From Octopus vulgaris (lineage: Eukaryota), in NCBI GenBank assembly GCA_951406725.2, contig OX597818.1:144460001-144524000 (forward strand): a stretch of DNA of 64,000 nucleotides, given 5' to 3'. The notes below the pieces were generated by a model. That model did not search any database. It was not told the origin of the DNA and was given only the letters and a program-made list of their open reading frames with translations. Position 1 is the stretch's first letter. Every line of letters begins with the position of its first letter. Made by a program: the position numbers and the translations under genes. This document shows positions 4,096-56,800 of this stretch, piece by piece.

Positions 4096-4190
4096 ATTCT
4101 CAGCCTGATGAATAGCTTAGCTGAGTACACCTTGTTGAGTAACTCTTACGCCAGAGGATGAGCTAGCTAAGAAACATATGTAGCCAGAAT
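4096..4190 (+). ncRNA. Candidate type I hammerhead ribozyme (Penelope-type, palindromic stem III)
   Basis: ATTCTCAGC-CTGATGA(4105-4111)-A-TAGCTTAGCT...AGCTAGCTA-A-GAAAC-ATAT-GTA(4180-4182)-GCCAGAAT. Core intact, stem II present, stem III ACATATGT self-complementary, stem I imperfect. Confidence 0.7.
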
Positions 4191-4731
4191 TTTACCCATT
4201 CCACTCCCTCAATCTGGAGTTTTGCTTGCATTCATAGCAACCTTCGTTGCTAACTGTGAGCTATACAGAAACTTTCAGCTTATTGAATTTCCTCATAACT
4301 TCAATATGGGAAAAAGTGTGTAAATTTGATGCCAATAAATTGTTAATGTTCCTGACTGTATACTGTCTACTTCTTTTTTTTCTATACCTACCATGGACTG
4401 GTTGAAGCTTACAAACTTCCTAAACTCGCATCTCTGGATCTTACTCTTATATATATGTATATATAAGTGCGTGTGTTTGTGTCACCTTGTATTGACATCG
4501 CATGATAGTTGTAATTGAATGTTACTGTTATTCAAACAGTGTCATTCATTTTCAATATTCTGTAAGATCTTGTCTGGCAATAGGGAAATATTACCTTGTT
4601 TGAAGACAGGTGAGAGTTGGTGACAGTAAGGTCATCCACCAAAGGAAAACTGCCTCAGATAAACTCCATTCAACCAATGCAAGCATGGAAAAGTAGATGT
4701 TGAATGACGATAATAAAGATGATAATATAAG

Positions 4732-5606
4732 AAGTGTGGTGAATATATTGTCATCTAAATTACACGAAAATGAAAATAACACCTTAACAGATATATTTAG
4801 CAAAATTGATTAAAAATATCATGAAATACTGAAGAGTAAATTTATTCAATAAAATTGCCATTGGCTTCAACTAAAGCCTCCAGACGACTTTGGAATCTCC
4901 AAAATTTCTGGATGGTCTCCTTGTTTAAGTTGTTGAATGTTACCATAATCCTTGCCTTCAGTTTATCTTTGGTGTTACTAGGAGTTTTGTTGGTCTCTTG
5001 CTCAACTGTGCTCGACACATAATAATCAAAGGGTTTGCTGTCTGAGGAGTTAGGTGACCAGATGTTAGGGGTGATGTGGTCGCAGAAATTGTCCGACAGC
5101 CATGACTGGGTACTGCTGCTTGTGTGGCATGGTGCAGAGTTCTGTTGCCAGACATAAGGTATTCTAGCAACCACCTTCTTGAACCAGGGCAGCACTACCT
5201 CTTCCAGGTACTTGATGTTGGCCTCTGTGTTGAGTCTGAGGCCATGTGGGAAGATGAATGGAGGCATAACGTCACCATCACTAGTGATCACTCCAAATAC
5301 CATGATGTTGACTGGATGTTTGATTTTTATCACTCTCAGTACATGTTTTGGGGACCCAGCAAGCCAACAGTTGTTCTGTGTGTTCGCTGTCTGTTTGTAT
5401 TGGAGTTTCTGGTGCAAATGCCAAGCAGCACAGCATGTCGTTTCCAAATTTCTGGCAGAGTGAATTGTGTCATGGTGCTGCTTTTTTCACAGACTGTGCC
5501 CTGCTGACCCTACTATACTGTGCAGTCGACAAAATCAAAAAACAAACAATGCGCAGGCACAAAATCAAAAATAAAACACGATGACAATTTATCCATTGCA
5601 CCCTGT
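4732..5606 (-). mobile_element. Tc1/mariner superfamily relic (DD37D/maT-like), internally deleted
   Basis: ORF 4842-5447 has IMVFGVITSDG, VWQQNSAPCH, WSPNSSDSKPFDYYV and LVEANGNFIE. Right TIR reads (TA)CAGGGTGCAATGGATAAATTGTCA on minus; decayed left TIR GTGTGGTGAATATATTGTCA. Confidence 0.8.
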
Positions 5607-5703
5607 ATATATATATATATATATATATATATATATGTATACGTATATATATGTGATAGGAATGCTTGTTTGTAACTATTGTATTACTATCTAGTTTATA
5701 ACT

Positions 5704-52836: not shown

Positions 52837-53413
52837 ATGTGAGTTTTTAGTCCTTGATTCAACCAATATGCACTCCAGTTGAAGCAGAACGAGCAAGCGA
52901 CATTACAAGAAAATTCCCCTGGTATAGACGACGGATGAAAACAGTTTACCCCCCCCTGTGAATTTAATGAAGAGCTGGATTAGAAATTCTGACACATTTA
53001 CCGAAAACAACAGTCATCTGAAGAAGGCAGGAGGGCACAACGTCCGAAATAATATAACCACGCTGAGGATACTAGTCCAAATATTTTAGTCTTTAATAAT
53101 TGTTTCTAATTCAGACATAAGAACAGTACTTTTGACGGGAAGGGGTTAGTCGGTTATGTTGAACTTCGTACTTGACTGGTACTTAATTTTATCGATCCCG
53201 AAAGGTAAAGTTGGCTTTGACAGGATTTATACATATTATAAGAAAGAACTACATCTTTCAAAACTTCCATGCTTCCTGAAGTCCGCCAACACTACACCTG
53301 ATGTTTTTTAAGTTGTAGTGCACTTGACTACTGTATACAACAATTTCTTTCACATTATATATATTAGAAATATTGCATTAGTAAATCTCTCAGAGTTATG
53401 CAGTAGCAGCACG

Positions 53414-53836
53414 ATAAAGTGATGATGGTTTGTTGCCAACTTAATGTGGCAGTCTTTGGAAAGAGAAGAATGCTATTGCTATTCAGCCCCAAGAGACACC
53501 GTTTCTAGTTGGCTACATGACACAAGCGTTCTGTGTCCTTAAGTTTTCAAACAGGAGAAATAAGCACCTCCCTCCCAACAAAGCCAGCAATCAGAGACTA
53601 GTTTCAGGGTAATTGCACTTCATCAGTCTGGAGTAGCTTGGCTTTGTTAGCTGTTGGTGCTAAATCACTGTTGAAAACTTATAGAATTTCAGGTGAAATA
53701 AATTCACTGATCTACAAAATTAGAAATATTGCATTTCTAACCAACTAGAAATGGTGTTTCTTGAGGCTAAATAGCAGTAGCATTCTTCCCTTTCTTGGGA
53801 CCGCCACATTAAGTTAGCTACAGACCATCACTTTAT
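53414..53836. repeat. Fold-back element with ~100-bp imperfect outer arms and a nested inner hairpin, next to (TA)n
   Basis: 53414-53515 mirrors 53738-53836. Inner pairs AGTTTTCAA/TTGAAAACT, AGCACC/GGTGCT and AACAAAGCCA/TGGCTTTGTT. Confidence 0.85.
53592..53630 (-). ncRNA. Minimal type I hammerhead ribozyme at the apex of the fold-back
   Basis: Minus strand CAGA-CTGATGA-AGTGCAATTACCCT-GAAAC-TA-GTC-TCTG. Intact core, stem I CAGA/TCTG, stem II with two mismatches, palindromic ACTAGT. Confidence 0.75.
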
Positions 53837-56800
53837 ATATATATATATATATATATATATATATATATATATAACTTGCCATGATTGACCGCTAACTCCA
53901 CAAGTTTTATTGTTCCTTTCTGTTGAAGAGCATAGGCTCGGAACATAAAAGACTTTCTCGCCTTCCTGAGCATAAGACTAATACACTTGCTTGTAGTTTA
54001 TACACCTGTCTTCGTTTTTTGTTTTTCTGTAAATTTCAACTATATATATATGTGTGTGTGTGTGTGTGAAACAGTTCATTTTTGATTTCAATTACCCCCT
54101 GAATTGCGGGTCATAGTCTTTGTTGATCGTTTGCACTTCATTTTAGGATAAAACCTTTTTCTTTTTGACTGGATGCAAAAGTTTCCAGTCCCCCCCTCTC
54201 TCATTTCTTTTGTGTTGTCCATTCAAATTATATTGTCCCAATATCACCCCCGTCACAAAGTTTGAAGATATAACAGAGTAGATATCTTGATGTGATGCAA
54301 AACAGTGTTGCCCTCTTTTGAAAATGTATTCATATATTTTCAACTCAGCGGAATTAGTTTTATGGCATTATGTTAGTTCAAATCTTTTGTTGTTCTCTCG
54401 CAGACTAAGATCCAAGGGCTCGCGGGGAGGGGGTCATTCTCATTTCTGTTTGGTACCTGATTGAGGCTATTGTTTAGTCTTGGGTCAGTCCAGATTGAAT
54501 AGACACATGATCAAAGACGCCCTAGCTATAACCAAATCGTCTGTTTTTTTTTTAAAGTCGAACATCAACAATCTAGGACAGTGATTAGATGGACGTTAAG
54601 TGAGCGGAGGAAGATTTGACTGCTATTTCTAGCATGTAGAGTGACCACCTAGAGGTTGCTTCGTTTCCTTGTGATTTCGAATTTTCGTCTCAAAAAGTGA
54701 AAATGTACAATTGCTTCGAATTTATGTTGTTCATGGAAACCTGTACCTATTTACTTTTTTAAGCTATTCTTACTGAATAAAGTAAAGCATAAAAAGAAAA
54801 TATTTATGAAATTATTTGAGTTTCGATAGTTTAAGAAAATAAAATGCTTAGCTTTATTCTACGTAGGTTGCGAAGTTTGTTCATCTGCTAAATATTCTCT
54901 CTATTTGTAATTTTTGTATTTTTAAATAAAATCAGCGATTGTCTAAATTAGTTGTGAATGTACTTAAAACAGCCGCATATAATTTATTTGCAGTTATTTT
55001 AATTCATTCTCTACAATCGCTTGCAATTGTTGTATGAATTTTTATTTCTATCTATCTGCAATCGCTTGCAATTGTTGCATTAATTTCTATTTCAATCTGT
55101 TTGTTTTCCAAGTTTCCAACATTTTATTGTAACATTATTTTTAACGCGCTTGAAAAAAAAAAAAAAAAACAAATATAAATTCGCGGTCGACTTTTCATTT
55201 TACACTCATTTTACACTCCGCTGACCGTTAAAATTTATTAGCACTTCCTTATCTATTTGTCATTTAAGCCTGGCGAGTCACCTTATACGGTTTAGCACTT
55301 TATAGGTGCGAAACCAATGGTCACTCTCTGACTGACCATGGCAATCAACTTCCTATTATACACACACTGTTGCTGACGCTCTATAGCAGGGGTGCTTTTC
55401 TGGCAACGACATGCGCTTTTAAAAAAGTATATACTGATTATTTAAAGCTTGGGAGTCAATATGTAGATAAAATTAAAAAAAAAAAAAAATTAATACCGCA
55501 TTTTAAATCATTAAAGCATTTATCTGAAAGAAAAAGAATGGTGCTAAGGAAGATGGGGATAGAAGAGGAACTCATCCATTGTGGGGCATCAGAAAAAAGA
55601 CAATAGAAAAACTTTTTGTGTCTGCCGATGCAATATTTTTGGATAAAATGAATTAGACAAGTATTTCAGTAAATATTAGGTGTGGTTGGGCTAGGTAGGT
55701 CCTGCTAGTGCCTACCCACACTGAGCAGTCATTCCAGTTAAAGGATGGACTGTGTATATACATAAGCACACGATCAGTTTGCATTATTCTTACTGTATTT
55801 GGATAACCATATCTATCAATGCCGATTTTTTTTTCTTTTACTAAAAATCATTGATCCCTATATAATGAAGTCTTCTTAAAAATGATTTTTATATTTTAAA
55901 ATATTTTCTGTCAGTTGTTTCATTATCACTTAACGCCTACTTTTCCATGCTTGCATGGGTTAGATGAAATTCTTTTGAGGCAGATTCTCTATGGCTGGAT
56001 GTGTTTTCAATTGTCAGTCTTTTCCCCTAGTCAGGACACTTTTTCACAGTTTGTATAATGGTGGTATTTGCTTACAATTAGCATGCAATGTCAAATCAAA
56101 GAAGCACACATATATATATATATGAATATATACACATATCATGGGCTTCTTTTCAGTTTATGTCTTTCAAATTTACTCACAATGCTTTGGTTGGCCTGGA
56201 GCTATAGTAGAAGACATCTACTTATGGTGCTATGCAGTGGGACTGAATCCAAAAACCACTGAGCTATATCTCTGCCATTATGCTTTTTAAGAAGTGAATT
56301 CTAGAAACTTGAAAGAACATTGTCCAAACTTTTTGCATTTTGGAATGTTTATTGAACCAAAAAAAGATATCAAAACCACCTAATTTAGATTCTGATGTTC
56401 TGTTAACATAAACAGAAACCTATGGGTTCTACCTCAGGAATCTTGGAGTTGGTACTTGATTACATCTGATACCTGTATCATTCCATGGGAAAAAGATACA
56501 ACCCCTTCCAACAGGTTGCTTGTCAATGGTAACTTTCCTGGAAGTTCTGTAACTTAGTCCTAATAACTTGTTAAGTTGAGATGTATAGAATAGTGTCCTG
56601 TTGAGAGACATCACTAAAAGGCTTACAGTAGATTTGAATTCCCCCAAAGTAGCAACTCGAAAACTTTGTTCACTTCACTATTATACCATTACAATTTAGA
56701 ATTATTATGGAATTTGTGAATTATTGCCTATTTTCTTGAATCCATTCTGTTTATAACATTGATTCACATATTTTGTAAGTTTTGTTCTCTAATATCTTTA

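Follow-up and report, generated by a model that had tools for sequence, protein, structure and literature searches.

The 64,000-nucleotide stretch of Octopus vulgaris contig OX597818.1 analysed here (assembly GCA_951406725.2, positions 144,460,001 to 144,524,000, hereafter the window) carries several hammerhead ribozyme motifs, which raises the question of what kind of element brought them there. As a whole, the window is AT-rich and crowded with microsatellites and transposon debris. The initial annotation had attributed the hammerheads to a diverse class of small ribozyme retroelements mobilised by Penelope-like element (PLE) reverse transcriptase (RT), such as that at 1.1-3.1 kb. In our reading, to which a probability of roughly 0.7 is assigned, PLE machinery inserted DNA into the window several times independently, for the most part at TA microsatellites, and the unit at 53.4-53.8 kb would be a retrozyme-like monomer without long terminal repeats (non-LTR) that was mobilised in trans.

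A descriptor scan recovered perfect CUGANGA, GAAA and UH elements in type I order at 4105 (+), at 44715 (+) with its mirror at 44646 (-), and at 53626 (-), the three intact-core positions named previously. The core, combined with a palindrome of at least 6 nt and a stem I of at least 2 bp, gave 4 matches at 3 loci, whereas 400 dinucleotide-preserving shuffles of 1-kb blocks yielded 0.035 matches on average and never more than 1; thus, the comparison with shuffled sequence that had been proposed, run here on the window, places the motif above background. When the stem I requirement was dropped, the shuffled mean rose to 0.22, and 3 matches were reached in 4 of the 400 shuffles. The descriptor without the palindrome requirement returned the same 4 matches, each of them with a palindromic stem III, and the palindromes of the three loci are all different, in agreement with the recurrence of unlike palindromes noted earlier. 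Additionally, when 213 tiles of 300 nt were scored, the three cores occupied the top 4 tiles, with a clear gap below them. Judged by their sequence, the three cores are real type I hammerheads of PLE type, with rather long palindromes.

It was also claimed that these cores are intact, which holds for the core letters but only with reservations for the surrounding helices, since the G10.1-C11.1 pair is absent in all three (A.A, A.C and A-U are found instead). At 4105, two proximal stem I pairs are followed by an internal loop and then by 4-5 bp, and the fold is no better than that of shuffled sequence (z -0.92); at 53626, a 4-bp stem I accompanies a weak, mismatched helix II; at 44715, a 4-bp stem I is found together with a 4-bp helix II beyond the A.C opposition. 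The features of the strict minimal hammerhead ribozyme (min-HHR), namely an extra nucleotide after A9, G10.1-C11.1 and no helix III loop, do not describe the three cores, which are classed from their letters as helix III variants and not as strict min-HHRs; in the window, the extra A together with G10.1-C11.1 occurs only in the relic at 53920. No hammerhead reaching the Rfam gathering threshold was found among the 150 of 227 window matches listed, nor in local scans, and the only trace was a sub-threshold Hammerhead_1 match at 44709-44761 (11.3 bits, E 5.6). The microRNA matches reported by Rfam in the window were rejected as hairpin and microsatellite artefacts.

The unit at 53.4-53.8 kb is of a different make from the others (Table 1). 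It has a 22-nt direct repeat with a period of 356 nt and only one hammerhead, and it revealed no open reading frame (ORF) of at least 120 aa and no credible PLE protein match. The predicted fold of the 356-nt monomer deviates more from 60 shuffles on the hammerhead strand (z -4.4 linear, -4.2 circular) than on the opposite strand (z -2.3 linear, -2.7 circular, again 60 shuffles each), and the arm that carries the hammerhead gives z -4.5. The inverted copy at this locus, which repeats part of the 3' region on the 5' side of the monomer, stops some 50 nt before the point where the main copy ends, and the last 50 nt or so of the monomer (53363-53415) form a one-sided tail without counterpart in that copy.

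This unit belongs to a family. Contigs of 4 of the 24 listed sequencing runs, whose RNA nature was guessed, were aligned to 53380-53832, and 56, 47, 0 and 18 family contigs were obtained, the positive runs being coded as three organisms; the run without any contig (X6) is not proof of the family's absence there. Most of these contigs are less than 95% alike to the window copy, and one X1 record spans 53392-53725 unbroken. The commonest family letters at 53590 and 53591 bring stem I, which has 4 bp in the window copy, to 6 bp, and those at 53647 with 53578 swap an A-U pair for G-C in the outer helix. Joints in X1 and X3 return from position 53726 or 53740 to 53392 or 53423, and one in X17 returns from 53736 to 53425. 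The depth of the X3 joint equals that of a record having 115 unique bases ahead of the joint, and on the strength of this depth match we read it as a true head-to-tail junction, although contigs cannot separate a circle from a genomic tandem and side lengths at the joints are mostly not displayed. The window holds the monomer alone, and diverged copies of it occur in 3 of the 4 runs, with the joints of X1, X3 and X17 as candidate head-to-tail junctions. The exact 53626 hammerhead pattern had 0 matches in metagenome contigs. Its sequence makes the unit at 53.4-53.8 kb a probable non-LTR retrozyme that owes its insertion to PLE machinery.

At 44.7 kb, two arms that are 99% complementary over 212 nt meet head to head, each of them starting 34 nt before the core and pointing its 3' end outward, at a (TA)n tract. 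By these sequence features, the unit is one young insertion event, a PLE-style head-to-head stump between (TA)n tracts, and its two hammerheads belong to that single event, the mirror copy not being an independent find. A clear tail was not seen at this unit. The read-through RNA is predicted to form a hairpin that is 97% paired, so this copy could not dimerise in cis. An inverted 5' copy, as in PLE insertions, is present at 44419-44934, 53741-53833 and 27035-28801, the last of these having a PLE-like shape and no detectable hammerhead.

The remaining core, at 4105, has a predicted cut site after A4182. The boundaries of the unit hosting it were not found, and its region has no repeat partner in the window and no PLE coding match; it is probably a worn solo copy.

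Table 1. Features of the window discussed in the text (positions counted from the first letter of the window; cut sites are predictions)
Feature	Positions	Strand	Details
PLE RT relic	1147..2760	-	probably Neptune-type
Inverted repeat around short TA tract, 5' side of the PLE relic	3041..3200		no hammerhead
Type I hammerhead	4093..4190	+	core 4105-4111, 59-nt helix II region, 8-nt palindromic stem III ACATATGT
Older head-to-head palindromic unit	27035..28801		arms 88-89% alike, split by mariner transposon ~27199-28478
Head-to-head palindromic insertion	44419..44934		two ~260-nt arms, no spacer, centre 44680/44681
Mirror hammerhead, left arm of the 44.7 kb unit	44605..44650	-	core 44646, stem III ACAATTGT
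Hammerhead, right arm of the 44.7 kb unit	44711..44756	+	core 44715, stem III ACAATTGT, cut after 44752
Non-coding monomer	53363..53740	-	356 nt + 22-nt terminal repeat; retrozyme-like, self-paired on the hammerhead strand
Type I hammerhead at tip of long interrupted helix I	53590..53632	-	core 53626, stem III ACTAGT, cut after C53596
22-nt direct repeat, first copy, 5' end of monomer	53719..53740	-	8-bp hairpin; second copy 53363-53384
Inverted 5'-truncated second copy	53741..53833	+	~93 nt, 84% to 53423-53515, ends at (TA)n tract 53834-53873
Short TA-flanked unit	53874..54040	+	probable relic of a minimal hammerhead 53916-53956, core 53920

The PLE at 1.1-3.1 kb, which had been suggested as the source of mobilisation, is, from its sequence, a dead relic, probably of Neptune/Nematis type. 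Its closest named protein comes from Octopus sinensis (77%), and the RT with its DKG motif is present, but the copy carries stops and frameshifts. It aligns to about residue 556 of relatives of 750 residues and ends there at a microsatellite, before the CX2-5CxxC finger that was present in 37 of 37 full-length relatives and before the GIY-YIG endonuclease. The 3' repeat and a hammerhead are absent from it, and it has no DNA similarity to the hammerhead units. It documents that such PLEs lived in this genome, and in its present state it mobilised nothing; the proposed role was overstated for this copy, which is broken, without endonuclease and 3' repeat, and without sequence link to any unit.

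The association of such hammerheads with PLEs can nevertheless be followed in related loci. A total of 98 loci encoding relatives of the window RT was retrieved by an alignment search (a single-protein query gave 0 loci), and 41 of them had a hammerhead descriptor match. In 35 loci, the sequence continues for 400 nt or more beyond the ORF match; 24 of these had a sense-strand hammerhead within 800 nt of that match (median 319), and none had one in antisense. G10.1-C11.1 was present in 16 of these 24 ORF-linked hammerheads and absent in 8, and its absence therefore does not disqualify the window cores. Stem III was of 4 nt in 17 of the 24 and of 6 nt in 7; a 4-nt stem III is palindromic by descriptor design, and among the matches with a stem III longer than 4 nt in the 98 loci, 13 of 17 had a palindrome. 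An inverted upstream copy was found in L008 and L086. In the closer relatives L022, L023 and L029, the bases facing each other at the foot of helix II are unpaired, as in 44715 and 4105.

From the motifs, their geometry, the contig family and the fold, we infer cleavage, dimers, circles and a responsible PLE in the following manner. A short palindromic stem III of the PLE type is known to favour dimers, allowing strand exchange and cutting between two copies on the same tandem transcript. For PLEs it is also established that the GIY-YIG endonuclease nicks AT-rich DNA, that the RT begins near the 3' end of the RNA and usually stops early, and that a second, inverted copy is deposited 5' of the first; in the window, these steps are suggested by the shape of the units. 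The stumps at 44.7 and 53.9 kb, and probably the solo 4105 copy, could thus be early-stopped PLE cDNAs. The 53.6 kb copy would be the product of PLE machinery acting in trans on a 356-nt RNA, either circular or tandem, with the start at the hairpin and the synthesis carried 22 nt beyond one unit; its inverted copy would come from another start, some 50 nt deeper in. If the monomer was copied once round plus 22 nt, then the template would have been a circular or tandem RNA. The narrower proposal that the unit is a cephalopod retrozyme whose 356-nt circle is taken up by a PLE RT at a fixed hairpin, copied a little beyond one full turn and inserted at (TA)n along with a PLE-type inverted copy and tail is tentative, and we give it somewhat less than an even chance.

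Several results weigh against this interpretation. In each of the three cores, another predicted fold is lower in energy than the hammerhead, and an 8-nt stem III palindrome occurs in 0 of the 24 ORF-linked motifs and only once among the 98 loci. A tblastn search with 120 PLE proteins gave nothing credible near the hammerhead units, blastn of the units against the 98 PLE loci gave no match, none of the units is continuous with PLE coding sequence, and a parent ORF for the window hammerheads was found by neither search. In the contig analysis, the aligned query omitted 53363-53379, so that some joints may be misplaced tails, and the RNA label of the runs is itself a guess. Finally, when 38 of the 40 listed variant rows were mapped to the predicted fold (the 2 that fall in the inverted arm were omitted, and 47 more rows are outside the count), 11 broke a pair, 6 kept it, 2 were compensated and 19 fell in loops or mismatches; with 11 pair-breaking against 2 compensated rows, covariation across the 53.6 kb family is not shown.

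An alternative is that all units, including that at 53.6 kb, come only from PLEs with ORFs, either as their 3' ends, formed by pseudo-long terminal repeats (pLTRs), or as by-products with internal deletions, and that no self-propagating retrozyme family exists. The geometry of the units is indeed the same as that of ordinary PLE insertions, the 53.6 kb unit has a single hammerhead and no tandem in the window, and retrozymes are reported, in the portion of a preprint cited here (10.64898/2026.07.22.740005), to derive from pLTRs. However, in other family copies the 22-nt repeat stands next to 53700-53718 (records 2, 7, 14, 22 and 23, from three runs, reach 53716-53738) and the tail stands next to 53423 (records 1, 2 and 16). 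Since both junctions recur in other copies, the short period would be a family trait and not a one-off deletion; moreover, the 53.6 kb unit bears no coding trace and the fold of the whole monomer is strand-biased, so that this alternative appears unlikely. It could also be supposed that the inverted-repeat units are non-autonomous DNA transposons, such as miniature inverted-repeat transposable elements (MITEs) or foldbacks, that carry hammerhead remnants by chance, given that the 44.7 and 53.4-53.8 kb units have inverted ends within TA, like Tc1/mariner MITEs, and that mariner elements occur in the window. At 53.6 kb, however, the main copy extends about 50 nt past the point where the inverted arm stops, and family contigs continue from the arm into the tail, so that the arm is not a terminal inverted repeat, and at 44.7 kb there is no internal spacer, while the position and type of the hammerheads fit PLE ends. 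A DNA transposon origin is hence the least probable of the explanations considered, with hardly any weight left to it. A reading of the 22-nt repeat as a target-site duplication, or of the 53.6 kb unit as a MITE, was ruled out because other family copies contain the repeat.

The model of the initial annotation went further, since it placed all units in a single diverse class of microsatellite-targeting mini-elements in which each family's palindrome acts as a dimerisation code preventing cross-activation. Such a code is possible energetically, given that the predicted stem III homo-duplexes (-7.0, -6.4 and -4.8 kcal/mol) are far from the hetero-duplexes (-1.2, 0.0 and 0.0 kcal/mol), making the three differing window palindromes orthogonal in principle. 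Nevertheless, palindromes are widely shared among PLE hammerheads, with ACGT in 17 of 49 matches and ATAT in 11 of 49, and ACTAGT of 53626 also occurs in the unrelated loci L009, L011 and L027. Different motifs with the same palindrome were found in L037 and L038, which have one assembly prefix, and in L034/L040 and L046/L054, with the caution that metagenome assemblies may mix hosts. Additionally, dimers are thought to arise within one tandem transcript, in which case a code is not needed, and at 44.7 kb the two copies have opposite orientations, the read-through RNA being the paired hairpin described above. A literature search, outside of which lie subscription journals and supplements, found no paper on a hammerhead palindrome code. 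The code is thus not supported, with palindromes being common to different PLE families even within one assembly, and the model that includes it is very improbable. What remains of the proposed class are the real hammerheads, the link to PLEs and TA tracts and one retrozyme-like unit, but the class is one already described, and at least two kinds of unit are present.

Most of these traits have precedents. According to Cervera and de la Pena (2014, PMC4209133), PLE hammerheads reach thousands per genome, are highly variable and mostly solo, and can lie on opposite strands in pairs separated by 100-700 bp; the palindromic form of stem III is likewise described for PLE hammerheads in that paper. 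Compared with that account, the window motifs are alike in being type I and diverse, in having a palindromic helix III and a short helix I, and in including an opposite-strand pair, and the 53.9 kb relic resembles the min-HHRs described there by its extra A and G10.1-C11.1; they differ in that the window cores lack G10.1-C11.1, in their two 8-nt palindromes and in the 59-nt helix II of 4105. Cleavage of short-palindrome hammerheads as dimers is attributed to Lunse et al. in the part of PMC6765202 that cites them.

Regarding insertion, the cited sections of PMC8557442 and PMC3846280 report that Neptune and Naiad insertions show an inverted 5'-truncated copy, a one-sided tail and a (TA)n bias, and those of PMC11167929 that PLE proteins nick AT-rich DNA, that the RT starts inside the RNA at a stem-loop and leaves a tail, and that hammerhead cleavage was dispensable for insertion in one PLE tested in vitro. 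The window units resemble these insertions in their head-to-head copies, in 3' ends at TA tracts, in the one-end tail at 53.4 kb and, with regard to the stem-loop start, in the hairpin at the 53.4-53.8 kb inverted junction. In contrast, they measure 170-520 nt and have no ORF, the 44.7 kb unit is nearly symmetrical, and the 53.4 kb tail is of about 50 nt, compared with the usual 30-40 in these sources.

As for retrozymes, those of mussels are given in the cited text of Cervera and de la Pena (2020, PMC7229834) as 350-390 bp long and self-paired, and solo monomers of animal non-LTR retrozymes (150-450 bp) are described in parts of the same paper and of preprint 10.64898/2026.07.22.740005. The 53.6 kb unit agrees with these sources in being a 356-nt, non-coding, low-GC and highly self-paired sequence, and its family shares with animal retrozymes a 6-bp helix I and a 2-bp helix III with a palindromic loop; the pyrimidine mismatch in helix II of 53626 recalls axolotl HHR_Amex2 as it is portrayed there. 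On the other hand, the unit bears an inverted copy and a tail, while PMC7229834 does not use the word 'inverted' anywhere in its main text, and it differs from retrozyme arrays in being seen as a monomer for which circle and cleavage are only predicted. That retrozymes are PLE passengers was proposed in a passage of PMC7229834, and Li, Clavereau and Pollet (10.64898/2026.07.22.740005, in the part cited) argued for PLE mobilisation from co-occurrence and pLTR homology. No cephalopod retrozyme family was found in the literature, although molluscan or cephalopod families may be listed in supplementary files of PMC4209133, PMC7229834 and the 2026 preprint, and ribozymes are unmentioned in recent octopus repeat annotation. 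Most of the present finding is ordinary for a PLE-rich animal genome, and the useful part is the 53.6 kb family, in which octopus may have a circular RNA with a ribozyme that has so far gone unreported. With a retrozyme monomer that combines an inverted copy and a tail with more than unit length, PLE mobilisation can be tested by way of insertion junctions counted in one assembly and, if the interpretation is true, copies of this family would be direct footprints of PLE machinery mobilising animal retrozymes.

Four relic hammerheads had also been claimed, among which that at 53.9 kb is plausible, but those at 26.3, 28.6 and 30.1 kb are at background in the tile scoring, their scores being equalled by 25, 201 and 128 of the 213 tiles, respectively, against 13 for 53.9 kb; they were rejected, as was a candidate at 26.0 kb. 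The motif at 53920 (+) has the extra A, G10.1-C11.1, a 4-bp helix II and a 4-bp stem I, with three departures from the consensus, and is not significant by itself in tile scoring; its letters suggest a probable hammerhead relic with textbook minimal layout in a TA-flanked unit. The bare core word is just mildly enriched (38 against 29.4 expected, standard deviation 5.4), so half cores carry little meaning. One of these, CTGATGA at 36483 (+), lies in a TA-flanked unit (36280-36560) with a GAAAC word upstream and without valid stems, a unit that is possibly the relic of another PLE end. Another, at 53018 (+), reads CTGAAGA...GAAA over 53018-53050, with a possible 4-bp helix II and neither stem III nor stem I. 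Behind the 4105 hammerhead, 4262-4307 has a weak 47-nt similarity to 58078-58124 (74%, E 0.004).

The earlier emphasis on (TA)n proximity is unremarkable for the cores, given that 43%, 32% and 31% of the window lies as close to one of 96 TA tracts (11% for the 53.9 kb relic), but TA tracts, which are dense in the window, do directly adjoin the units where these end at 44.4/44.9, 53.8 and 54.0 kb. The absence of flank similarity between hammerheads held likewise in part, by blastn, as the 44.7 and 53.9 kb units have a subterminal motif of 15-17 nt in common. This motif, TTTTTC(1-3)TGTAAATTT, was found after the fact in three window copies (44895 +, 44460 - and 54022 +), each just inside the TA-abutting 3' ends of these units, and could possibly be a cis signal common to both. 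It was not found at PLE 3' ends in the 98 loci, and its background test was swamped by degenerate microsatellites.

Among the PLE loci, L005, L029, L033, L075, L088 and L095 have hammerheads with a U3-A8 core variant, and U3-A8 covariation is described for PLE hammerheads in the cited part of PMC4209133. Many of the PLE ORFs of L001-L018, which lie on contigs filed under bacterial genome bins, have hammerheads, and these contigs are most likely animal host DNA. Further large inverted-repeat units of the window, at 34207-34924 (75%), 29951-30918 (about 69%, nested) and 31056-31792 (128-nt arms, 96%), contain no hammerhead and are probably foldback or MITE-type elements. The mariner element at 27199-28478 encodes Transposase_1 and HTH_48 and has terminal repeats that are 88% alike; it sits inside the left arm of the older palindromic unit and is therefore younger than that unit.

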